From: Eledone cirrhosa
Lineage: Eukaryota
Direction of reading: 5' to 3'
DNA length: 64,000 bases
NCBI GenBank assembly: GCA_964016885.1
Contig: OZ024743.1
Coordinates: 34,162,001-34,226,000, forward strand
Made by a program: the position numbers and the translations under genes. A model generated the notes under the pieces. That model was not told the DNA's origin. It saw nothing but the letters and a program-made list of their open reading frames with translations, and did not search any database. Below are positions 5,459 through 64,000 of this stretch, one piece after another. Within the stretch, counting starts at the first letter, position 1. The number at the start of each line of letters is the position of its first letter.

Positions 5459-5592
5459 ACATGGCTTAGTGGTTAGAGCATTGGCCTTGCAATCGAAAGG
5501 TTGTGAGTTCAATTCTCAGACCATGTGATGTGTTGTTTCCTTGAGCAAGACACTTTATTTCACATTTCTCCAGTTTACTCAGCTGTAGAAAT
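5459..5592 (+). mobile_element. tRNA-derived SINE family S2, 5' part
   Basis: A-box tggcttagtggttaga, B-box gagttcaattc, core tccttgagcaagacactttatttcac. Confidence 0.8.
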
Positions 5593-15589: not shown

Positions 15590-17160
<1,571 letters not shown>

Positions 17161-38297: not shown

Positions 38298-38425
<128 letters not shown>

Positions 38426-38554
38426 CTATATAGAGTAAAGGAAATAGAGTGAAATAACGACACAGATGACAGAGTGAAAGGAGTATTGAAAAGCATAGCA
38501 TGAGAAAAAACAAAACATGAAATACATACACATGAAATGATAGATAGATAGATA

Positions 38555-41210
38555 TATTTCTTTATTAGCCACAAGGGCGCACAAGAAAAGGGGACAACAC
38601 AAAGACATGCCGGGGATTTTACATACAATCGTGTAAACAATATAAAACAAACAATTATAAAAGTCGAAATCCCCAATAGGGGAGAAGCACCACAAATGGG
38701 TTGTTTAATACCCCGTCGATAGAACAACCCCCAACTTCAGGAGCGTGTTGTACAAGTGCTCCTTTCTTCCTTTTTCTCTCTTCTTTAACCTACAGGCTTA
38801 TAAACAGAGAAGGCCCAATCACTCGGGCCATTTTCGCTTCATTCACCCACCTTTCAGTAAATTTACAGGGGTGCAGTGCCTCTCTCTCCACTCTGATTCT
38901 CCTTCTAAAGTGATACTTAAAGAAGGGAATCAATTGTTGTCCGGAGAGAAAGGTATCTGTCCTCAGTCCTCTCAATCTCGTCCACCATATAACCTCTTTC
39001 ACCATAGACACTGTACAGAGGAAAACTGCCCCTCTTTCGTTTTTGAAAGAGGCTGGCGGTTTTATCCTTACTATGGACTCGGCAGTCAACTGGATTTATC
39101 CCATACGCGACAGCAGTTGTTCTGCATAGTTCCACAGGTCGCTTACGCCCAGGCAGTGTACAATTGCGTGCAAGACGGTTTCAATGTCCTGCTCGCATCT
39201 TGGACACGTCCTCTTGGAAGGATCCCTGCCGCAAACACCTTGGTCGTCACCTCGTTCCAGTTATTCTCCACCTGGAGTAGTGGCTCGAGAGTCAGTACGT
39301 ACAGAAGGGAGGAGAGAGGGCATCCCTGTCGGATGGATCGCGTGATATATATCGGCTTCGAGAGGTAGCTGTTCACCCTGACTCTTGAGCAGATGTTGCT
39401 GTTGTGCATTGCAGCAATCCAGCCACTGAACACGGGTCCGAAGCCTGCCGCCTCGAGCACCGCATCCAGGTAACGATGGTCAACCCTATCGAAAGCCTTA
39501 GACTGATCCAAGTTTATCAGGGCCCCACCGAAGCCGGATTTACACCCTACCCTCTCTATGATGTATCGCATGAGGTGGAGGTTGTCGTGTATGGACCTGG
39601 TCGGGATTGCGCATGTATGCGCTTCTCCCACCAGGTTTTGGACGACAAGCGCCAGCCTCTTTGCCAACACCTTGGCCAAAATCTGTAATTCTGTGTTGAG
39701 CATGGTTATGGGCCGGCAATTGCTTACGTCATCCCCCTTGTTCTCGTCCTTCCTGACTAACGTGATTACGCCCTTGGTCACAGAACTGGGAATTCTCCCG
39801 TTCTGCTGCCAGTTGCAGTAGACCGCTTCCAGGAGACCGGAGAAAAAGTCCGGCATTGCTACGTAAAATTCGTAGGGTAGACCGTCGAGACCTGGAGATT
39901 TGCGTTTGCCGCATTGGCTCATCGCGTCGCCTACCTCAGCGGCCGAAATCGGCCTTTCGCAGAACTTCGCCTCGCTATCCAAGAGTCGCGCTAGGCCGTC
40001 GAGGTATGAACCGAAATCCATAGCCCCTCTCGGCGCGCCGCCCTGCCTGAACAGTTGAGCAAAGTGCCGCTGAAAGGCCGCGCACATTTGCTTCGGCTCA
40101 CGTTCACGCGTCCGTCTTGGTCCTTCAAAGACCGAATCGTGGACTTGTTGGCGCTTTTCGACTCCGTCACTCGGGCCCAGCTAACAGCTTTGGCTCCCTC
40201 GTTTCCCAGAGCACGTATTTTGCTTCTGACAACACATCCTTCATGCTTTGCGTCGAAGAACTGGTCCAATGCCGTTGTCGTCGCTAGCACGCTGGCTACG
40301 TTGCCACACCCAAGTGCCTCTTCTACTTTATCTACCAGTTCCTTTTCGGTCTTATTTCTATCTAACACTAATTCTTTACTAAAACCTATCGAGTCTAATC
40401 TAACTGCCCTCTTGAGAGAGTACTTGCATACTTGAATACACCATCTGTTGTTGACAATGGCCCCCGTCAAGTGCTGCTTAACTAAAGTGCTAATCCGTCT
40501 ACTGTAGGCTTTGCATGTCGGTAACGACAAGTTCAGCTTCCAGTAGCCGGGTCCCTGTCTATGGGTTTTGTCAAGGTTGACTAAGCAGGTCACTAATTTG
40601 TGATCCGAATAGGCAACCATGAATATTTGTGGACAGCTTAACATGTCCCTATCCTTCTTTCTAACTAGAACCCTATCTATGTACGATCTAAATGTTCCGC
40701 TACGATTAGTCCACGTCCACAGTGGCAGAGGAGTCGGAAAATCTAGTGGATATCTATCGGCCAGGACAAATCGGCCGATTAACTGATTGAGGCTGTTAAA
40801 CCCCCCTCTATCGGGAAAGCTCCCACATAGTCCCAACGTGCATCTAGGAGTCCATTCCAGTCCCCCACTAACAGCAGGGAGCGGGACGTTCCCAGAAAAG
40901 TCTCTAGACGTTTGAAGAAGGTGGCCGCCTTCACTACCGTCAACGTCTAGGACCACCAGTCGACCATCCGGGTCCAGATGTACCGTCTGTGTTACGAGGG
41001 CCAGGTGTTTCCGCAGCAAAGCGGCAACCCCACCCCACCCCCCGACTGACAGATTCATGCGTAGATCTCAAAGTCGTCGAAGATGGGGGCCAGTTGTCGC
41101 TCACTGTGGGTCCTGGACTCGCAAATGGCTACTACATCCATACTGTGCGACCTGATGTCGTTTAAGAGTTTGCCCTGTTTCCAGGGCATTCCCAGGCCGT
41201 GTACAGGTAA
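38555..41210 (-). mobile_element. Tx1/L1-clade LINE copy 1 (subfamily A), 5'-truncated, with several internal deletions
   Basis: APE motifs (YSDHKLV, GPGYWKLN) and RT motifs (KSPGLDG, RPITMLN, LDQSKAFDRVDH, IRQGCPLS). YADD region deleted at ~39275. 3' end AATAAA followed by (TATC)n. Confidence 0.93.
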
Positions 41211-41284
<74 letters not shown>

Positions 41285-41527
41285 TAATAGATATATTTAT
41301 TTATTAGCCACAGGGGCACAAAAGAAGGGGACAAAAGGGGAAGTTTACATACAATAAAAACGTGTAAAATATTATCACAAATGTAATTTAAAAATTAGTC
41401 GATTTTCCCCAATAGCGGGAGACATTTCATATGGGTAACACATACCCCCGAAAAAAAATGTGCAACCCTCATCTCCAGGAGTACGAAGAGTTTGTACTCC
41501 TTTCCTCTCCTTCTCTTTTTCCTCAAC

Positions 41528-44496
41528 CTACAGGCTGATATAGAGAGAAGGCCCATTCACTCGGGCCATTCTCGCCACTTTCACCCACCTTTTATAAAAC
41601 TTGCTGGGGTACAGCACCGCTCTCTCCATCCTGATTCTTCCTCCAAAGTGGTATTTGAAAAAAAGAATCAGTTATTGGCCGGAGAGAAAGGTGTCTGACC
41701 TCAGCCCTTTCAACCTTGTCCACCATACAACCTCTTTCGCCATAGCTATCACACAAAGGAAAACCGCCTCTCCTTCGTTTTTGAAGGAGGGTGGTGGTTT
41801 GATCATGACAATGGACTCGGTGGTCAACCGGATTGGTCCCACCCGCGACAATAGTCGTTCTACATAGCCCCACAGGTCGGTGACGCCCGGGCAGTGTATG
41901 AATGTGTGCGTGACGGTTTCTTCGTCTCACACGCACCTCAGACAGATCTTTTTTGCAGGGTCCCTGCCCGGGCGCCCATATCTGTAGAGCTTGTCTCGAA
42001 CTGGTAGAGCTCCTCGGTAGCACTGCTAGGCCAGGGACTTTTGGAAGTTGTCCATCGGTCCCGGGCGGAAGGTCCTACCGAACAGACTGGCCAGTTCGTC
42101 TTCCTCTACGCCCAGAGTTTCACCGAGCACGTCGTAGCACTTGCTGCGTATCAACCCTCTATAGAATGACGAAGTGGAGTCTCCACTGATCGCCGGGTCC
42201 GCCTGCCAGAGAGCTGTGAGCGCCTGAGCAAATTCGATGTGCCAGTCGCCCATTTTCCTCGGTCTTTGCTTGACCCAGGACTGCAGCTCGGTCAGCGAGA
42301 CGAGTCGTGAGAAGGCTCGCCTCTCGAACGGGGCCCACACCGGTTGTCCGGTGAGGAATACGTAGAGATGCCGCAGCCTGAGCGCGTGTTTGCGCATCGT
42401 CAGCCACGGCACCCCCAGCCTTCCGTTGGAAGGGCGTTGGCAGCAGATGGATCTTCTCACCATAGGAGCCCGCCTCTTCCAAAGGAATTGGAAGAGCGCG
42501 CGCTCCATTTTGGCGAGCGTTTTGGCTGGAAAAGGTACGACGGTCAAGCGGTAGTAGATGGCGGACGCTATAAAAGTGTTCGCCACGTCCGCTCGACCTT
42601 TCAAGGATAGTTTGCACTCGGCCCACTTCTGGGTGAGTGCAAACACCTTAGCCGACACTTCGTTCCAGTTCTTCTCCACATGGAGGTCCGGACAAAACCA
42701 GATCCCGAGCAGCTTTACCGGTCCTTCCGTCCCGCGTCCTACGACGCCATCGGAAGGCATCGGTTTGCCTCTCCACGATCCGAGTTGCAAACCGATGGAC
42801 TTGTCCCGGTTCAGCTTCGCTCCTGTGAGACTTTCGTACCGTATGGACCTGGTCGGGATTGCGCATGTCTGCGCTTCTCCCACCAGGTTCTCGACGACAA
42901 GCGCCAGCCTCTTTGCCAACACCTTGGCCAAAATCTGTAACACTGTGTTTGGCAGAGTTATGGGCCGGAAGTTTCCTATGTCATCCCCCTTGTTCCCGTC
43001 CTTCTTGATTAGTGTGACCACGCCCCCGGTTACAGAACTTGGAATTCTCCCGTTCTGTTGCCAGTTGTAGTAGACCGCTTCCAGGAGACCGGAGAATAAG
43101 TCCGGCATTGCTACGTAAAATTCGTAGGGTAGACCGTCGAGACCAGGAGATTTGCGTTTGCCGCATTGGCTCAGCGCGTCCCCTATCTCAGTGGCTGAAA
43201 TCGGCTTTTCGCAGAACTTTGCCTCGCTGTCCGAGAGTCGCGGTAGGCCGTCGAGGTATGGACCGAAATCCATAGCCTCTCCTGGACCCCCCCCCCGAAC
43301 AGCCGAGCAAAGTGCCGCTGAAAAGCCGCACACATCTGCTTCGGCTCACGTATCACGCGTTCGTTTTGGTCCTTCAAAGACCGAATCGTGGACTTGTTGC
43401 CACTTTTTGCCTCCGTCACTCGGGCCCAGCTAACAGCTTTGGCTCCCTCGTTTCCCAGAGCACGTATTTTGCTTCTGACAACGCAGCCCTCGTGCTTTGC
43501 GTCGAAGAACTGGTCCAAGGCCGTTCTCGTTGCTAGCACGCTGGCTACGTTGCCACTTCTAATCGCCTCTTCTACTTTATCTACCAGTTCCTTCTCGGTT
43601 CTATTTCTATCTAACGCTAATTCTTTACTAAAAACTATCGAGTCTAATCTAACTTCCCTCTTGAGAGAGTACCACCATCTGTTGTTGACAATGGCCCCTG
43701 TCCAGTGCTGTTTAACTAAAGTGCTAATCCGTCTACTGTAGGCTTTGCTTGTCGGTAACGACAAGTTCAGCTTCCAGTAGCCGGGTCCTTGTCTATGGGT
43801 TCTATCAAGGTTGGTCATGCAGGTCACTAGTTTGTGATCTGAATAGGCAACCATGAACATTTGTGGACAGCTTAACATGTCCCTATCCTTATTTCTAACT
43901 AGAACCCTATCTAGGTACGATCTAGATGTTCCGCTACGATTACTCCACGTTCACAGTGGCGCAGTCGGAAAATCTAGTCGATATCCATCGGCCAGGTCAA
44001 ATCGGTCGATTAACTGTTTGAGGCTGTTACACCCCCCTTTATCGGGACATGCTCCCACATAGTCCCAACGTGTATCTAGGATTCCATTCCAGTCCCCCAC
44101 TAAAAGCAAGGAGCGGGACGTTCCCAGAAAAGTCTCTAGACGTTTGAAGAAGTCTGGCCGCGGTGTCCCGGATGGGGCATATGCGGCCACCAGCCTGAAG
44201 GCTCCACCTTCACTACCGTCAACGTCTAGGACCACCAGTCGACCCTCCGGGTCCAGATGTACCGTCTGTGTTACGAGGCCCAGGTGTTTCCGCAGCAAAA
44301 CGGCAACTCCGCCCCCACCCCCCGGTTGACAGAGGGATGCGTAGATCTCAAAGTCATCGAAGATGGGGGCCAGCTGTCGCTCGCCGTGGATCCTGGACTC
44401 CATACTGTGCGACCTGAGGTCGTTTAAGAGTTTGCCCTGTTTCCAGGGCATCCCCAGGCTGCGTACGTTCACACATCCAACTCTTATATTGGCCAT
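41528..44496 (-). pseudogene. Tx1 ORF2 (APE endonuclease plus reverse transcriptase), disrupted
   Basis: MANIRVGCVNVRSL, YAP, LVGDWN, SDH, KSPGLDG, KLLGIWF, LSLKGR. Stops at 42026 and 41927. Confidence 0.92.
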
Positions 44497-44529
44497 GTTG
44501 GTGCTGAAAAGTTAAAAGAGGAAAAGAGA

Positions 44530-46443
44530 TCACTCACCCTTCGTCTCCTGGGGACCAGGCCGCACGATATCCATGGGGGTGTTGGAGGGGTTGTCTGGAT
44601 GGGTGGTGGTTTCCGGCGGGGTGGGGATGGAGATGTTTGGTGGGGTTGGGTCTGGTGGGATGGGGGCGTCTGGGGTGGGGAGACATTTGAGAAGGACGCG
44701 GTTGAGTGGTTTCACGCAGGAATTCCCCACATCCTTCTCAAATGTTTCTTTTAGGGACCTATAAGTTTGTATAGGGACCCTAATCAGTTTTAAGTTCAGT
44801 TTTTTGCTATTTTTAATAGAGTGGGCGAAAGTTTTCCCTTCGGTTTTCACCGAAGGGTCGTTCGTGATGGACTCCATTAGTGTTTTGTTTTCAGTGTTTA
44901 TGTAAGTGTAAGTGTAATTTTCTTGTGTTGTGTTTGTTTTTGTCTGTAGTTCTTGTGTGTGCTTTCGTTTTGTTGTAGGTATTTTGTTTTCAGGAGGTGG
45001 GGGTTTTGTTTGTGATGTTTTTGTTGTTTGTGTTGGTGGTTGTATGTTTGTGGTAGTGTTTGCTGGTTTTTTGCTTTTGTGATGTCTTTTCTTTCTTTTC
45101 GAGCGATGAGGTTCTCCCTCGTCTTCACTGGGTGATGGCGAGATAGCTTCATCTGTTGTATCGTCTGTGTGATTGGGGAGGGGTATGTCTTGGGGAGCTG
45201 TTGTGTCTGTATGTGATTTTGCAGTGGTTTTAGGTGGAGTGGGGTTGGGTGGGACTATGTTTGTTGTGGTTATTTTTGTGTGTTGGTGTTGTTGTTGTTG
45301 TGGTGGTGTTGGTGGTTGTGTTGTTTTGATGGGTGTCGGCAGAAGAGCCTTTTTTATATTCATTAATTTAGGACAGGAAGCACTCAGGTGACCCCTGCTA
45401 AAGCAATGGTAACATGAAGGCCGCCTACCCTCAACCGAAAAGTTTATGTAGGTGAGTCCGTCCAGGAGTACACGTTGTGGGATCATAGCTATTCGCTCTG
45501 GGCTCATTTGCACCAGAACTTCAATGCTAGTCCCATTGAATACATCTCTGGGGGACTTGCCTACTGACAGTATTCTGTCTTCATCAAAATTGATGAAGCC
45601 GCACAGTATCCACCATATGTTCACCTTTGGTGTGACACTCGTGATTCTGATCTTTTGTGTCCTTTTTCCCATGTATGTAGGGAAAAAGGTGTACAGGTTG
45701 GATACAATTGGCGACACAGTAATTTTGGGCCGTCAATTGATCCTTCATGAGTACCGAAATACTCCCAAAAAGTTTGCTTCTTTGAATGAATGCAATATCA
45801 TTCATTGAATTTTTGAAAACCAGTTTAATTTCTTTCTGTGACAATTGGACTGGTTTTCGGGTAGAATTGGAAACTGTCCTAAAAACTATCGTTTTGAGAG
45901 CAGTTTCCTTGCGAATTTCTACCGGAGAATTGATGCTGAAAGCATCATTTTTTTCGAAACTGACATATCTCCTAGCGTCCTTTAAAAGTTGTTCAGCATT
46001 TGTTATGTCGAGATATATCAATTCTTCCTTTTTTTTTACTTTCTCTGCAAAGGAGATTTTGGTTTCTTTGTGGAATACGTATTGGTGGTGTTGTCATTAT
46101 TGTTGTTATTGCTGTTGTTATTCTTGTTGTCACTGATGTTGGTATTATCCGTATTTTCCTTGGTGTTGTTGTTGTCTTTGATGCTGGTGTTATTGGTGTT
46201 GTCCTTATTTTTTTCTTTGTTGTTGTTATCATTGTTGCTTTTATCATCATTATTGGTGTTGCTGTTATTTTTGTTGTCATTGAATTGTTTGGTGTCATTT
46301 GTGTTGTTTGAATATGAATTCGTTTTTACATTTTCATTTCGTCTTTCCATCTCTATAGTATCTAGTGATGAAGACGTTGTTGAATGCGAGCTTTGTAGTC
46401 TTACCGCCTCTCCACCACCATTATCATTGGACGCAGCGTTCAT
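44530..46443 (-). pseudogene. Tx1 ORF1 (gag-like), frameshifted
   Basis: ORF pieces 46036-46443 (N/D/T-rich), 45584-46021 and 44530-45717, with zinc knuckle CYHCFSRGHLSASC and a P/T-rich tail. Confidence 0.85.
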
Positions 46444-46700
46444 AACGTAATCAAAATTTTACAATATTTTTTCCAAGATTCGATGGAGAAAAAATATTTC
46501 AAATAGATATTCCTCCCCTGTGGGGGCGAAAATGAGTTGACCCACGGGGGGTCAAGTTACACAATGATATAAAATTTAACTAAAAACTCACGTTTTTTTC
46601 TTACATAAATTAACGGAAACTTCTCCGCGAAGTTACACACGTCTGATAGAGAGATAGATAAATAGATAGATAGATAGATAGGTAGATAGATAGGTAGATA

Positions 46701-48698
46701 AATATGATTCTTTATTAGCCACAGGGGCACAAAAGAAGGGGACAAATACAAAGGGGGAAGTTTACATACAATAAAAACGTGTAAAATATTATCACAAATG
46801 TAATTTAAAAATTAGTCGATTTTCCCCAATAGCGGGAGACATTTCATATGGGTAACACATACCCCCGAAAAAAAATGTGCAACCCTCATCTCCAGGAGTA
46901 CGAAGAGTTTGTACTCCTTTCCTCTCCTTCTCTTTTTCCTCAACCTACAGGCTGATATAGAGAGAAGGCCCATTCACTCGGGCCATTCTCGCCACTTTCA
47001 CCCACCTTTTATAAAACTTGCTGGGGTACAGCACCGCCCTCTCCATCCTGATTCTTCTTCCAAAGTGGTATTTGAAAAAAAGAATCAGTTATTGGCCGGA
47101 GAGAAAGGTGTCTGACCTCAGCCCTTTCAACCTTGTCCACCATACAACCTCTTTCGCCATAGCTATCACACAAAGGAAAACCGCCTCTCCTTCGTTTTTG
47201 AAGGAGGGTGGTGGTTTGATCATGACAATGGAGTCGGTGGTCAACCGGATTGGTCCCACCCGCGACAATAGTCGTTCTACATAGCCCCACATGTCGGTGA
47301 CGCCCGGGCAGTGTATAAATGTGTGCGTGACGGTTTCTTCGTCTCACACGCACCTCAGACAGATCTTTTTTGCAGGGTCCCTGCTCGGGCGCCCATATCT
47401 GTAGAGCTTGTCTCGAACTGGTAGAGCTCCTCGGTAGCACTGCTAGGCCAGGGACTTTTGGAAGTTGTCCATCGGTCCCGGGCGGAAGGTCCTACCGAAC
47501 AGACTGGCCAGTTCGTCTTCCTCTACGCCCAGAGTTTCACCGAGCACGTCGTGGCACTTGCTGCGTATCAACCCTCTATAGAATGACGAAGTGGAGTCTC
47601 CACTGATCGCCGGGTCCGCCTGCCAGAGAGCTGTGAGCGCCTGAGCACATTCGATGTGCCAGTCGCCCATTTTCCTCGGTCTTTGCTTGACCCAGGACTG
47701 CAGCTCGGTCAGCGAGACGAGTCGTGAGAAGGCTCGCCTCACGAACGGGGTCCACACCGGTTGTCCGGTGAGGAATACGTAGAGATGCCGCAGCCTGAGC
47801 GCGTGTTTGCGCATCGTCAGCCACGGCACCCCCAGCCCTCCGTTGGAAGGGCGTTGGCAGCAGATGGAACTTCTCACCATAGGAGCCCGCCTCTTCCAAC
47901 GGAATTGGAAGAGCGCGCGCTCCATTTTGGCGAGCGTTTTGGCTGGAAAAGGTACGACGGTCAAGCGGTAGTAGATGGCGGACGCTATAAAAGTGTTCGC
48001 CACGTCCGCTCGACCTTTCAAGGATAGTTTGCACTCGGCCCACTTCTGGGTGAGTGCAAACACCTTAGCCGACACCTCGTTCCAGTTCTTCTCCACCTGG
48101 AGGTCTGGACCAAACCAGACCCCGAGCAGCTTTACTGGTCCTTCCGTCCAGCGTCCGACGACGCCATCGGAAGGCATCGGTTTGCCTCTCCACGATCCGA
48201 GTTGCAAACCGATGGACTTGTCCCGGTTCAGCTTCGCTCCTGTGAAACGTTCGTATTCCTTCAGTAAGGTGCCGACTTCCAGGATTTGCGAGGCGCTCGG
48301 CACCATGACTGTCACGTCGTCGGCGTAGGCCAACGCCGCTTTCCGCAGTCCCGGTTCCAGAGGGATGCCCTGCAATAGCTCCAACTTCCGCAGTAGTGGC
48401 TCGAGAGTCAATACGTACAGAAGGGAGGAGAGAGGGCATCCCTGTCGAATGGATCGCGTGAAATGGAACGGCTCCGAGAGGTAGCTGTTCACCTTGACTC
48501 TTGAGCACATGTTGCTGTTGTGCATTGCAGCAATCCAGCCCCTGAAGCACCGCATCCAGGTAACGATGGTCAACACTATCGAAAGCCTTAGACTGATCCA
48601 AGTTGATCAGGGCCCCACCGAAGCCGGGTTTACACCCTACTCTCTCCATGATGTATCGCATGAGGTGGAGGTTGTCGTGTATGGACCTGGTCGGGATT
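46701..48698 (-). mobile_element. Tx1 copy 3 (subfamily B), 5'-truncated, retains YADD
   Basis: ORF 47443-48576 contains IRQGCPLS and AYADDVTV. The 3' 1.5 kb is near-identical to copy 2. Confidence 0.95.
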
Positions 48699-48742
48699 GA
48701 TAGATAGGTAAATAGATAGATTGATTGATAGATAGATAGATA

Positions 48743-49426
48743 AATTTCTTTATTAGCCACAAGGGCACAAAAGAAGGGGACAAATACAAATGGGGAGTTT
48801 ACATACAGGTATATGAAAATAAAACTATTAATACAATAACAAATAACTATTGAAATCCCCAATAGGGGGGGAGGTGTTACACAGGGGTTGTACGCACCCC
48901 GAAAAAATGTACAACCCTCATCTCCAGGAGCACCAACAGTGAGTACTCCCTTCCTCTCTTCCTCTTTTTCCTCAACCTACAGGCTTATATAGAGAGAAGG
49001 CCCAACCACTCGGGCCATCTTTGCCACATTCACCCACCTTTTATAAAATTTGCTGGGGTACAGCACCACTCTCTCCATCCTAATTCTTCTTCCAAAATGA
49101 TATTTGGAAAAACGAATCAGTTGCTCGCCGGAGAGAAAGGTGTCTGACCTCAGCCCTTTTAACCTCGTCCACCATATGACCTCTTTCACCATAGCCATAA
49201 CACATAGGAAAACCGCTTCTCCCTCGTTTTTGAAGGAGGGTGGCGGTTTGATCATGACAATGGACTCGGTGGTCAACAGGATTGGTCCCACCCGCGACAA
49301 TAGTTGTTCTACATAGCCCCACATGTCGGTAACGCCCGGGCAGTGTACAAATGCGTGTGCGACGGTTTCCTCGTCGCGCACGCATCTCGGACAGATCTTT
49401 TTCGAAGGTTCCCTACCTGGGTGCCA
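48743..49426 (-). mobile_element. Tx1 copy 4 (subfamily C), 5'-truncated
   Basis: C-terminal CPRC..EETVAHAFVHC motif and a distinct 3' UTR variant. Confidence 0.92.
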
Positions 49427-49446
49427 GATAGATAGATAGATAGATA

Positions 49447-49634
49447 TATTTCTTTATTTTCCACAAGGGCGCACAAGAAAAGGGGACAATACAAAGACAC
49501 ATGCCGGGGATTTTACATAGAGTCGTGTAAAAATATTGAAACAAACAATTATAACAATCGAAATTCCCAATAGGGGCGAGGCGCCACAAATGGGTTGTTT
49601 AACACCTTGTCGATAGAACAACCCTCAACTTCAG
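49447..49634 (-). mobile_element. Tx1 copy 5 (subfamily A), 3' UTR only
   Basis: Matches about 38555-38742. Confidence 0.88.

Positions 49635-49709
<75 letters not shown>
49635..49709. repeat. (GATA)n tract closing the array; others at 38539-38554, 41211-41292, 46645-46700, 48699-48742 and 49427-49446
   Basis: Seen directly. Confidence 0.95.
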
Positions 49710-49869
49710 GGATTGATATGAAACAGAGAGGGGACATTTGTATCTATCTCACATCAAGATATGAGTCTGTGATTACTAGTATTTGCAGTCAATAATGTTT
49801 ATGTTTTGGCGTCATATAATTATATACATTTCTATAACTATATCTCGTACAATAACTTTATACACTCTC

Positions 49870-49918
<49 letters not shown>

Positions 49919-50042
49919 TATACACATGCTTCATTCACATACACACACACACTCACATATTTGTATCATATGTGTTGTGTGTACATAAATGCATACATAT
50001 GGGTGTCATGTATATTATCTCTTTCTCCTAATTTCGAGTATA

Positions 50043-51050
50043 TTTTTTTTGACCGGCCACCTTCCTGGTGGCAAGGTTGTAAAAGAAAAGAAATTGTCAT
50101 CCCTTGAATCGCAAGAATATTTTGCAAATTTTGAAGGTGCCAGCTATCGCAGCCATTTGTAGACTATGAATTAGCTCATACTTTGGTCCAAGCGGGTTGG
50201 TATATAACCCGTAGCTCCAATAATGATGGGTATGATGCTAAAGGTGTATCTTGGATACTGGATTTGTAAACCCCTCATCAATGGTCCGTAGATGTCCTCC
50301 TTCCCCTGTATTTTTCTGACAACGTTTACATCAAGTGGGAAGCTGATCTCCACAACAGAACACGTTTTCAATGTGTGGTCCCAAACAACAATATCAGGCC
50401 GGTTGTGCTTTAATTTGGTGGCAGTTTTTATTTTCAGGTTCCACCAGTATTCCTTAGTGCCATCTGTCTCAATATATTCTTCCTCGTTTGTTGTTAATTT
50501 TGTTTTCCGAAGTGCGTTCCAGATGGTTCTAGCTATCCCATCGTGTTTCATGGTGAGGTAGTAACGAGATGACATTCTTTCGCAGCTGGCAACAATGTGG
50601 CTTACATCCTCGATCTTTGTTTTACATAGCCTACATTTATTGTCAGCTGCTGGCCCTCCTCTTTTGTGCAGCAGATATTTGGTAGGGAGTTCTTGTTCCT
50701 GTATTGCATAGAGATATCCCTCAAGGTGTGATGTCATAAACTTGTCAGAACTCCATGCCAGGCTTTTTGAGTGGTTTATCCCCTCTATGGTCTGTGTTTT
50801 ACGTCTCAAGTATCCATGCACAACTTTTTCAGTAAATTGGTCAATTTTTTTTATCTTGTTTGAACATTGAATAGTATCTTCCGATTTCTCTGGGTGAGAG
50901 ATTTATATCAGGCTTTATTCCATATCTCTCCTCCAGATCAGTCGCTATTCTAATGATATTTTTTTTTCATGCTCATAAACCTGGGCAAGATGGTTGCCAA
51001 CCTTTTTCCTCTGTTGAAGGTGTTGCTTCAGTGTTACTATCCGGGTCTCA
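50043..51050 (-). mobile_element. R4/Dong-like RLE LINE 3' fragment
   Basis: ORF 50171-50821: AIQEQELPT, CRLCK...HIVASC, HDGIA, HNRPDIVVWD...VVEIS.P, IIPIIIGATG. Short poly(A) at 50043-50050. Confidence 0.88.
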
Positions 51051-51154
51051 TATGTTGTTAATATTGATTTTAGTGGGTGTCATGTATGTATGTATGTATG
51101 TATGTATGTATGTATGTATGTATGTATGTATGTATGTATGTATGTATGTATGTA

Positions 51155-51696
51155 CAACCTGTCCCATGGTCGGGTCGTTGGCGACTAAACTGGCAACCCC
51201 ACCAAGGTTTCTTGGTGAGGAGGGCGACTTTGGACATCCTGCAGGACTAAAAACAAAACCTGTCAAAGGGCAAAGGGGCTCTTAAGAGTCAATGGCCATC
51301 CAAAATCACCGGGAGAGGTGACTCCTTAGCCTTTGTCAAGGCAGAATTCTAGGAGAAGGAAAACTCTGATATAACACCTGCAACCCTGATGGTATCCAAT
51401 AATGTTGACTTGTTCTTCTTTTTGGTAAATATCATCTTGGTTAAGAGAGTGGGACTGGCTTTGTGCTTCACGGCACAGGTATTGTTTTATATCTGGAGAT
51501 CTCTCTGCACTTGTCGTTACATGGTACCATGGGCCCAGCACTATGTGTCAATAATTGCCACAAGTGTAGTGTTTGTACCCGAGATTTCAAGTCGCTGGCT
51601 GGACTAAAAAGTCACACTCGTTCAGCGCATCGGTAGGGGTTCTCCTACACGGATATAAAGTAGTGGCCGTACTCGAAAACGAGTTGGCAGCCACCA
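51155..51696 (+). mobile_element. short RTE-type retroposon, copy 2, between (TATG)n tracts
   Basis: Same sequence and same 3' end (gcagccacca) as 4347-4906. Confidence 0.75.
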
Positions 51697-52289
51697 TGTA
51701 TGTATGTATGTATGTATGTATGTATGTATGTATATATGTATGTATGTATGTATGTATGTGAATGAAAACCTATACGACTGGACTTGTTTCTTCTTTTGCC
51801 ATGCGGATTTTCCTCATGTCTATAGTTGTCCTTTATATTTAGTTTGGATCAATGAAGACATGAAATTTAAAACTTTATACTCCAATTTATTATGCAGCAT
51901 AGATTAAGTAAACATTTAGTTGCAGACTCAACAATCGCATTTTTAGATGTAAACATAGAGAAAACTGTCAACGTATATTACATCAGACTGTACCAAATAC
52001 AGCAATATGTACATGAATTAAGGTCGAGGAATTTCAACGGTTATGTAAAAATCTGTTGTAAGGTCCTCTACTCAGAAGAGACAGCAAATTTTCCTTCACC
52101 AATGAATTATGAGAAAATGAAATTCATAATCTAAAGCGGCGGTTGCCCACCGTTGGTCCACCGACCACTTGTCGTCCGAGAGAAAATTTTGGTGGTCCGC
52201 AGAAAAATGTGGACATTATTTGCAATATCTATGTATTCAGTAGATGTACATGGAAAGTTGACAGTAGTAATCGCAGTGATAGACACATT

Positions 52290-52957
52290 TTTCAAATGCA
52301 GGTGGGTTCTATAGAAGTGGTCGATAGCTTCCGGTACCTAGATGATCAGATTAGCATGGGAGGGGGGGGGGGTGTTCCGAGGCCATAGTATCTAGAATAA
52401 GGACGGGTTGGAAGAAGTTTAGGGAGCTGCTTGCTCTTTTGACAAAGAAGGGTTTCTCCTTGCGTACGAAAGGCCGGTTATATGATGCCTGTGTGATCTG
52501 TGTGAGATGCGCGATGCTGCATGGTAGTGAGACATGAGCAGCAACTACAGAACCCATATGCGACGGCTGGAGAGAAATGAAGCAAGCATGCTCCGTTGGA
52601 TGTGCAATGTCAATGTGCGTGAACGACCAAGCATAGATAAGTTGAGCGAGAAACTGTGTATAAGAGGGATAAGTTGTGGTGTGCAGGAGAGAAAACTGAG
52701 ATGGTATGAACATGTGATGCGCATGGAGGATGACAGCTGGGTAAAGAAGTGCCAAGAAATCCCAGTAGAAGGAAGACGCAGTAGAGGAAGACCACGAAAA
52801 ACATGGGCGGATGTGGTGAGAGCAGACCTCAGATCGCTGAATCTCACGGAGGAGATGACGAAGGACCGTGACAAGTGGAGAGATGCTGTGCTCAATAGGG
52901 CCCGTCCCACCCTTGCAAGCAGGGAAAAGCGGACGTAAAAGGATGATGATGATGATG
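52290..52957 (+). mobile_element. RTE LINE 3' end
   Basis: EVVDSFRYL, LERNEASMLRWMC, RKLRWYEHVMRM, GRRSRGRPRKTW; (GAT)n tail. Confidence 0.9.
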
Positions 52958-55360: not shown

Positions 55361-55380
55361 GGTGACAGTCGAGTTTGTAA

Positions 55381-56517
55381 TCTATATATATAAAACTGTG
55401 GTTGTCTGTCTGTCTATCGATTTTTGGCACACATCTCCTCTTAGAATCTCTGACGGAATTGCACCGAAATTGCTATACTTGTACATTGAGCCCTAGCGAA
55501 GACATCGGAAAAAAATATTTCAAATTGACCCACCCTATCTATATATATAAAACTGTGGTTGTCTGTCTATCGATTTTTGGCACACATCTCCTCTTAGAAT
55601 CTCTGACGGAATTGCACCGAAATTGCTATACTTGTACATTGAGCCCTAGCGAAGACATCGGAAAAAAAATATTTCAAATTGACCCACCCTATGTGACGAA
55701 ATCGAATATAATGTATCGATTTTTGAGCGTAAGTTATCAGTTATTTCCCTTTGTTCTGTTTACATTGAGCGTCTTACGTAAAAAATTACGCTGGCTTTCT
55801 CAGCGTTTAAAATGACATTAACACAATACACGAACAGTTGTCGAGCCAGCAAAATATTGACCTGCAAAATTCATCAGTTCGAACACTAAGCTTCCGTTTT
55901 GCTTCATTTCCATTTAAAAGCATTTTAAAACAATATTTTACTTGAAAACAAGTCTATTTAAAGACTACGTAAAACAAGCAAATATTTCGTCGTTAGGCGT
56001 GCAGACAGACAGTCGTGCAGACAGACAGTCGTGCAGAGAGGTGATATACGCGTGCAGACAGACAGTCGTGCAGAGAGGTGATATAGGCGTGCAGACAGAC
56101 AGTCGTGCAGAGAGGTGATATAGGCGTGCAGACAGACAGTCGTGCAGAGAGGTGATATAGGCGTGCAGACAGACAGTCGTGCAGAGAGGTGATATAGGCG
56201 TGCAGACAGACATAACTGATAATTTGGTTACGCTAATGTTTTTCTCTGCGTTGCAGTGTTTACATTTTCGATCTTTGTTAATAAATAACCAGTGCAGTTT
56301 CTATCCCCAGCATCCTCTTTTGTTATAACATTCGGGTTATCGTTATGTTTTCTTAACTTCATAAGGCATATTGTTGGTTGAGGGAATATTAATCAAAAAC
56401 ACCACATGCAAGTCTGCACAGTAGACACTACAGTTTTTAAGCCAAGAAAGAAACTTAACATTGTAACTTTAACACAGCTACTGAGCGACCCCGAGCAACG
56501 CCGGGCTTTACTGCTAG
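55381..56517 (+). mobile_element. non-autonomous Helitron
   Basis: A|TCTATATATATAAAA 5' end, (GTCT) run, 3' hairpin cccgagcaacgccggg and CTAG|T. Confidence 0.88.
55996..56211. repeat. about 37-bp minisatellite inside the Helitron
   Basis: ggcgtgcagacagacagtcgtgcagagaggtgatata repeated about five times. Confidence 0.92.
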
Positions 56518-63566: not shown

Positions 63567-64000
63567 ACCATCACCACCATCATCACGACAGCCAATACCC
63601 TCGCCATCACCACCATCATCACGACAGCCAATACCCTCGCCATCACCACCATCATCACGACAGCCAGTACCCTCACCATCACCACCATCATCACGACAGC
63701 CAATACCCTCACCATCACCACCATCATCACGACAGCCAATACCCTCACCATCACCACCATCATCACGACAGCCAATACCCTCACCATCACCACCATCATC
63801 ACGACAGCCAATACCCTCACCATCACCACCATCATCACGACAGCCAATACCCTCACCATCACCACCATCATCACGACAGCCAATACCCTCGCCATCACCA
63901 CCATCATCACGACAGCCAATACCCTCGCCATCACCACCATCATCACGACAGCCAATACCCTCGCCATCACCACCATCATCACGACAGCCAATACCCTCAC
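63567..64000. repeat. 33-bp minisatellite running off the window end
   Basis: accatcaccaccatcatcacgacagccaataccctc-type units. It accounts for the VVMMV ORF. Confidence 0.93.

Follow-up and report, generated by a model that had tools for sequence, protein, structure and literature searches.

A stack of L1-group retrotransposons in a (GATA)n microsatellite of Eledone cirrhosa, from a lineage that prefers (TATC)n/(GATA)n across the genome

It is known that some retrotransposons without long terminal repeats (non-LTR retrotransposons) insert into microsatellites. In the Tx1 clade, the teleost families Kibi and Koshi use (TC)n and (TTC)n, respectively (Kojima and Fujiwara 2004, as cited in PMC4494074 and PMC3812793), and the crocodilian families Tx1-1_Crp, Tx1-5_Crp, Tx1-6_Crp, Tx1-1_Gav, and Tx1-2/3/5/8_AMi are found on (TTCC)n or (TTTC)n (PMC4494074); the Tx1 targets given in the available text of these two sources are hence TC, TTC, TTCC, and TTTC (PMC4494074, PMC3812793). 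Waldo at (ACAY)n, Mino at (AC)n, and Dong at (TAA)n are also microsatellite-targeting non-LTR elements, and it is remarked in the same review, in its available text, that the way in which elements with an apurinic/apyrimidinic endonuclease (APE) target microsatellites is not well understood (PMC3812793). In an octopod, Octopus vulgaris, 13 recently active L1-Tx1 families with 421 insertions have been described (PMC13282606). Here, we examine a stretch of 64 kb (called the window) from another octopod, Eledone cirrhosa, which is located at 34.2 Mb of the 378.8-Mb contig OZ024743.1 in the 3.0-Gb genome and contains an array of long interspersed nuclear elements (LINEs) at 38,539-49,718. Very probably, this array was built by five stacked insertions of an element of the L1 group (likely Tx1) whose lineage is sited genome-wide at (TATC)n/(GATA)n, likely by an endonuclease nick and priming there.

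In the window, five related LINE copies are arranged head to tail, all on the minus strand, with (TATC)n/(GATA)n alone in between. A preliminary description of this DNA had placed five minus-strand copies here, parted only by (GATA)n, and both points hold: the coordinates agree within a few bases, and the four spacers and the two outer flanks consist of (TATC)n/(GATA)n, either perfect or with slight imperfections. Elsewhere in the 64 kb, a perfect run of at least three units is found just once, at 15712 (12 bp). When the minus strand of 38300-50200 is read, every copy ends with AATAAA, six further letters, and then TATC units; counted from the first A of AATAAA, TATCT begins 12 nt further on, namely 6 nt past the hexamer and not about 10 nt as first described, while the layout itself was described correctly. 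Neither self-BLAST nor a family search found a further copy of the family in the window outside the array. The claim that no copy sits in (TA)n or (CA)n is correct to this extent, but genome-wide a few copies do occur in (TA)n or (TC)n.

The relation between the family and its repeat was examined across the genome. Searches with three 3' ends yielded 1693, 2944, and 1033 first-look candidates, and the best 40 of each were scored; 117 were full matches outside the window, 115 of these were examined (two segmental duplicates were not among them), and one more segmental duplicate was dropped, leaving 114 copies. After removal of four rearranged or unreached 5' ends, 110 resolved 5' junctions remained, 19 of them set by hand, with element-only libraries in use throughout. 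A TATC 8-mer was scored within -25 to +5 of the junction, and 26,640 windows from 40 evenly spaced 10-kb stretches served as background. The 8-mer was found at 83 of the 110 junctions (75%) versus 49 background windows (0.18%), and it was never found on the other strand (0/110). Even among truncated copies without an upstream neighbour, 54 out of 80 (68%) had the 8-mer at the 5' junction; both fractions exceed the share of flanks, more than 20%, that is used to recognise microsatellite targeting in the available text of PMC4494074. At the 3' ends, TATCT was present at +12 in 91/114 copies. A run of six A was seen in none of the 115 copies, which means no poly(A), and 57 of the 114 tails contained at most one perfect TATC unit. 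Matches resembling target-site duplications (TSDs) were noticed at 52 of the 110 junctions; 15 of these included non-repeat letters and were 12-21 bp long, mostly beginning with TATCT. In nine of the ten informative TSDs that begin at +12, furthermore, the base before the duplicated stretch was C, including three in non-TATC contexts. Also, GATA loose ends were found at several truncation points in contigs from public runs.

The family thus prefers (TATC)n/(GATA)n, and the preference is strong, not absolute. The preliminary description had proposed that the family recognises (GATA/TATC)n and had singled out the 5' flanks as a place where this could fail; these flanks favour targeting, and the preference, its single orientation, and the duplication of the target all stand. 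Several points nonetheless weigh against a strict recognition: 27 of the 110 junctions have no TATC 8-mer, 17 of them not even a 5-mer; a TC 8-mer occurs at 5/110 (background 0.5%) and a TA 8-mer also at 5/110 (background 7.8%); and the sample, made of the best-scoring matches, is biased to young copies, with the 19 hand-set and four unresolved junctions mentioned above. A target of the Kibi/Koshi kind is not what was found, given the TC 8-mer at five junctions versus the TATC 8-mer at 83.

A dispersed repeat that hosts some of the LINE copies (490 first-look candidates; loci L158-L187 and L268-L287) allowed empty and filled sites to be compared. Thirty-nine other copies were recovered by searching with the right flank, and this host repeat has TA, GT, and TATC tracts in a row, of which only the TATC tract contains the LINE. 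Twenty-six of the 39 copies were empty with a TATC tract (one degenerate), 12 were filled there, and one was a truncated host; no family match was found at the TA or GT tracts of the empty copies. The LINE copies in the 12 filled sites were of different 3' type and length, from 48 bp to full length. The left half of the host was seen in nine of the 12 filled sites, three of which had no TATC at the 5' junction. Empty sites lacking GATA would have spoken for a mere tail in the preliminary description, and the 26 empty sites, which are paralogous and not orthologous, keep the TATC tract; the target was hence present before insertion. Since 5' junctions, TSDs, and empty sites all carry the tract, (TATC)n is a target and not just a tail.

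As for the class of the element, PF03372 (APE), PF00078 (reverse transcriptase, RT), and PF13966 (zf-RVT) of Pfam were detected in natural open frames of genomic copies; PF03372 and PF00078 scored above the cut-off in one natural frame of locus L280, and zf-RVT was at the C terminus of the second open reading frame (ORF2). The element has two ORFs, with an N-terminal APE followed by RT in ORF2, and its copies show 5' truncation and TSDs (the 15 informative ones among 110 junctions), both of which are characteristic of the L1 group. When a 914-aa frame was compared with solved structures, human L1 ORF2p gave 157-160 bits (E about 1e-45) and R2 60-78 bits (1e-21), these being the only solved relatives returned. 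The element is an L1-group non-LTR retrotransposon. One CX2CX4HX4C knuckle was found in the ORF1 frames of L091, L099, L104, L108, L119, L132, and L269, and none of Transposase_22, RRM, and zf-CCHC was matched by Pfam in the four ORF1 frames scanned. A CCHC knuckle rather than Transposase_22 in ORF1 marks the Tx1 side of the L1 group in the available text of PMC5203782, and this is the state of ORF1 here. Two protein searches returned no curated Tx1, Kibi, Koshi, or Keno protein; a coral protein named by NCBI "Transposon TX1 uncharacterized 149 kDa protein" was 31% identical over 638 aa, and the best match with a named organism was from Argonauta hians (64%). After three matches of 64-74%, the next relatives were 39-43% identical ORF2 proteins from metagenomes, some in clusters of hundreds (P0004-P0031). 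One metagenome scan for relatives returned nothing, and a second one mostly relatives of 24-34% with one at 42%. Because the ORF1 knuckle fits but no curated Tx1 family was returned for comparison, membership in the Tx1 clade is likely, not shown.

The TATC lineage itself is diverse. Its full-length 5' ends are of at least six kinds, and several more types of the 3' untranslated region (UTR) were noticed (L102, L104, L111, L117, L123, L140, and L280), and the lineage is therefore a group of families. Some unusual copies were also seen: at L280:7049-7460, the last 200 bp of a full-length copy is present three times in tandem with TATC units after each, and the copy at L125:4634-6176 has an inverted 5' part, which we take to resemble the twin priming of L1. 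At G000:C3:14651925-14749789, four family copies are spaced at about 32 kb, and the two that were fetched have near-identical flanks; these copies likely lie in a large tandem segmental repeat.

In a random sample of the genome, furthermore, we noticed four related elements (L304, L318, L297, and L298) that share the layout of the 3' UTR but terminate in (ATT)n. Two sister families, E and F, were then collected (2737 and 600 first-look candidates; loci L328-L427). At the 3' end of E/F copies, an ATT 8-mer was present in 56/60 and TATC in 0/60, while ATT was found in 0/115 copies of the TATC lineage. The 5' junction was called in 45 of 50 copies examined, giving 35 ATT and no TATC (background 0.55%), a few of the calls lying in neighbouring repeats. 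Among 40 long loci, (ATT)n was directly upstream of all 31 full-length 5' ends recognised by motif; truncated copies are weaker in this respect, with ATT at about 4 of 12, one having a 16-bp TSD. There are many full-length E/F copies, and ORF2 is open in some copies of F (about 1150 aa).

The TATC families group as one clade in the RT tree (100/100), with E as its sister (99/99) and F outside; parsimony thus makes (TATC)n the derived target, and the TATC lineage likely arose from (ATT)n-targeting relatives. Against this stands an approximately unbiased (AU) test that does not reject E+F (p 0.22), leaving the ATT/TATC root unsecured, and the IQ-TREE endonuclease tree leaves the branching order open. 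A domain swap was also considered, as the endonuclease tree by FastTree followed the target and the RT tree did not, but is not claimed: it was unsupported by IQ-TREE (E+F at 76/66), with AU p values of 0.365 and 0.223. Between a type-B copy and E or F, the endonucleases are 62-64% identical and the RTs 75-79%. Two endonuclease loops differ between the groups. At the third place of the loop aligned to the L1 beta-hairpin, Ser is found in 29 of 31 TATC-labelled copies and Ile/Leu in all 28 ATT-labelled ones, and an N-terminal loop has MP in 18/20 TATC-labelled and SS in 20/22 ATT-labelled copies; one F copy is probably mislabelled as TATC in this comparison. Swapping the beta-hairpin loop alters the nicking profile of the L1 endonuclease (PMC1950540, in its available text). 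These differences are a lead, not proof, because they reflect one lineage split and are not independent evidence. It is conceivable, though we hold it only tentatively, that a few substitutions in the two loops, including the beta-hairpin, switched the target from ATT to TATC, giving a matched pair in which about one in three suitable sites of one host repeat has been taken by the TATC branch.

Target-primed reverse transcription is the established route of non-LTR insertion. Along this route, the GATA strand would be nicked by the endonuclease immediately ahead of the duplicated TATCT. Reverse transcription would be primed at the nicked strand, where base pairing between the freed AGATA end and UAUC of the RNA 3' end may also occur; second-strand cleavage 12-21 bp away would then produce the TSD. 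The endonuclease is probably the main determinant of the target. Alternatively, pairing between RNA and DNA might pick the target: nicking would be loose, and priming would occur only where the freed end pairs with a UAUC tail read through from the donor flank, in which case a change of the tail rather than of the protein would switch the target. The absence of poly(A) and the TATCT in register at +12 (91/114) are in line with this idea, as are the sister families, in which the same 3'-UTR layout goes with an ATT end and an ATT location; RNA-target pairing is also named as a possible extra contribution for L1 in the available text of PMC1950540. The base to the left of the TSD is outside the primer, however, and is C in nine of the ten informative TSDs at +12, also in the three non-TATC contexts. 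In several copies, moreover, the end of the element is joined directly to (TC)n or (TA)n, so that no fixed tail was copied, and the TATC and ATT groups have different versions of the two endonuclease surface loops, albeit by a single lineage split. We consider it rather unlikely that pairing picks the target, while it may act jointly with the endonuclease.

With targeting by the endonuclease, each insertion would duplicate the target, and a site would therefore stay open and could be struck again. Stacking is the normal outcome because insertion duplicates the target. Indeed, 38 of the 114 copies have a neighbour in the same orientation within 200-300 bp and two have one in the opposite orientation; counted as neighbours, these are 46 and 2, but some pairs are counted twice and no p value is drawn. 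Of the 12 filled host sites, six contain two or three copies, where 18% is expected from a Poisson distribution (p 0.011, or 0.047 without L280), an excess that could also stem from differences among the sites. At L271, two copies are each followed by a repeat of the same 19-bp stretch of host target, a pattern consistent with sequential insertion. The array in the window is one of many and an ordinary outcome of the targeting habit. The preliminary description had seen in it a self-extending array; copies do stack at a reusable target, but the array is not a special structure.

From left to right, the array begins with (GATA)4 at 38539-38554, the flank downstream of copy 1. Copy 1 (38555-41204, with the 5' edge at about 41204; 3' type A) is 5'-truncated at the ORF2 start, and what is left of its APE and RT contains internal deletions and stops. 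It is followed by a spacer of about 20 (GATA) units with imperfect ends (41205-41293) and by copy 2 (41294-46644; 3' type B), which is full length and starts at the same point as L280. The ORF1 of copy 2 is broken and has a CCHC zinc knuckle near 45414-45373, and its ORF2, from 44496, has APE, RT, and a C-terminal Cys/His motif together with stops and frameshifts, the RT having lost about 450 bp at 42840. Beyond 15 imperfect (GATA) units (46645-46704) lies copy 3 (46705-48697; 3' type B), 5'-truncated within RT, and then about 11 imperfect units (48698-48742); copy 4 (48743-49426; 3' type C) is a 684-bp 3' fragment, and copy 5 (49447-49634; 3' type A), after a (GATA)5 spacer (49427-49446), comprises 188 bp of the 3' UTR only. 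The (GATA)18-21 upstream of this 5'-most copy (49635-49718) cannot be the tail of any array copy. All five copies are broken, with APE and RT remnants detected by Pfam in copies 1-3; no Rfam match was obtained for the array or for two host-repeat copies.

It should then be asked whether the array arose mostly by tandem duplication of DNA, or by misassembly, from one or two insertions. When contigs from public runs were compared with its left edge and three spacers, no listed contig piece bridged a spacer and no empty allele was found, a result that is neutral on assembly. Copies 2 and 3, moreover, have in common 13 mutations, including two stop codons, that are absent from the other 22 of 24 aligned type-B copies; a pair has on average 0.37 such private mutations over 276 pairs, and the next highest number is 5. 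Also, the 5' end of copy 3 is within about 20 bp of the start of the deletion in copy 2, a coincidence that tells against separate insertions, since independent insertion then needs a hot spot; two other loci do break there. On the other hand, there are, just as was first claimed, three 3' types and five different 5' ends, and each of the 3' types has many dispersed relatives. In self-BLAST, the 3' similarity was 97.5% over 1611 bp between copies 2 and 3 and 90% over 207 bp between copies 1 and 5, and copy 4 was 76-84% similar to the rest; copies 1 and 5 differ at 20 sites in about 185 bp, and similar mixed stacks occur at many other loci. For the array as a whole, duplication or misassembly is very unlikely. 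The claim of at least three independent insertions in the same orientation stands, but copies 2 and 3 are not fully independent sequences.

For this pair, all 13 mutations are within a tract of 1359 columns (41299-42658 in copy 2 and 46710-48075 in copy 3) with an identity of 99.0%, while the identity is 93.0% outside; none of 2000 permutations was as uneven, and the last letters and tails of the two copies differ. The best fit to this pattern is probably gene conversion between neighbouring insertions, by which the 1.36-kb tract would have been copied from one to the other at a later time. Local duplication of the pair alone, 1% apart inside the tract and 7% outside, appears doubtful by comparison. 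TSDs of the five copies are not readable because they are located within the repeat; one imperfect motif common to two spacers may bracket copies 3 and 2 together, which is not proof. Four breakpoints fall within about 20 bp at the RT start (48697 and 42860-42840 in the window, L119:5616, and the downstream copy of L151), namely two 5' ends, one deletion start, and one internal junction, possibly a hot spot of template switching. The distance of the 3' end from the family majority is 4.8% and 6.5% for the outer type-A copies 1 and 5, respectively, and 1.2-1.6% for the inner three (1.2% for copy 4), with comparators chosen by likeness to copies 1, 3, and 4. Since the older copies are outside and the younger ones inside, the array likely grew from within.

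Passive accumulation, namely insertion anywhere with preferential retention in TATC repeats, has a precedent in the accumulation near CA repeats proposed for Drosophila Waldo-A/B (PMC3812793, in its available text), but it is highly improbable here: the sample consists of the youngest copies (93-99% alike), the junctions are in register and strand-specific, and TA tracts are not enriched despite being about 59 times commoner than TATC tracts (a 400-kb sample has 7 TATC, 411 TA, 136 CA, 62 TC, and 37 TAA tracts). That (TATC)n is only a tail encoded by a randomly inserting element, with an array formed by chance or by nesting in tails, is already refuted by empty sites and 5' flanks: TATC does follow every window copy, and full-length copies seem to have a short TATC-like head (copy 2 and L280 both have CTCTCTATC ahead of their 5' end), but TATC is at the 5' junction of the truncated, neighbour-free copies (54/80) and in 26 empty sites, half of the tails (57/114) have no more than a single perfect unit, and upstream of the 5'-most copy there is (GATA)18.

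Other features of the window are as follows. A 243-aa frame at 50171-50902 on the minus strand has zf-RVT (E 1.9e-6) and belongs to a different retroelement, unmatched by the ORF2 of the TATC lineage; (ATGT)n tracts are present at 51082-51154 and 51696-51759. A 135-aa frame at 52531-52938 on the plus strand presumably resembles the C terminus of an RTE-type LINE. At 5459-5527 on the plus strand, a tRNA-like Rfam match of 31 bits (cut-off 29), probably the head of a short interspersed nuclear element (SINE), comes right after a (TC)n(TA)n tract. Tandem repeats are found at 55380-55692 (153-bp unit), 56014-56212 (37-bp unit), and 63567-64000 (36-bp unit).

In conclusion, these results add (TATC)n/(GATA)n, and probably (ATT)n, to the targets of Tx1-type LINEs, here in a mollusc. 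Of greatest value is the TATC/ATT sister pair, a natural pair for asking how elements change their target; with closely related families that differ in target and have natural open endonuclease frames, the question of targeting can be tested directly, and the pair also bears on the engineering of site-specific integration. As a practical matter, GATA markers in these animals may frequently have LINE flanks and be multi-locus. A TATC/GATA-targeting Tx1 family was not met in the titles and abstract beginnings of the literature searched; Repbase, Dfam, Kojima and Fujiwara 2004, and supplements were outside this search and may list it. The L1-Tx1 families of O. vulgaris are of the same repeat class in an octopod and may include the TATC lineage; the word "target" is absent from the text of that report as available (PMC13282606).

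In terms of known systems, the resemblances are of several kinds. Tandem insertions sandwiching a TSD are described for SINEU-3 (PMC4494074, in its available text); sequential insertion at a duplicated target likewise leads to head-to-tail copies, but SINEU-3 is a non-autonomous SINE and its target is a DNA transposon. The window array is also head to tail, but it is interstitial, 34.2 Mb into a 378.8-Mb contig, and belongs to a family that makes TSDs and is dispersed on many contigs. The telomeric TRAS/SART and HeT-A/TART elements, which are of other clades, form unidirectional head-to-tail arrays, TRAS/SART by inserting inside a short repeat and HeT-A/TART by adding to chromosome ends. The preliminary likening to TRAS/SART or HeT-A is thus right as to the head-to-tail order and the interstitial place, but loose as to HeT-A, the insertions here being internal and with TSDs. 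Waldo, Mino, and Dong belong to other clades (R1 and R4) and have targets other than TATC, while the TAA/ATT repeat is common to Dong and the sister families E and F. The crocodilian Tx1 families prefer tetranucleotides, and related ones among them differ in the repeat unit; the unit and the phylum are different here, and the TATC and ATT sister groups exist in one genome. Closest in description, not by tree, are Kibi and Koshi, APE-type elements of the L1/Tx1 group in a microsatellite with a pyrimidine-rich strand, from which the present lineage differs in its target and its octopod host. The kind of element is known, and what is likely new is its target, (TATC)n.

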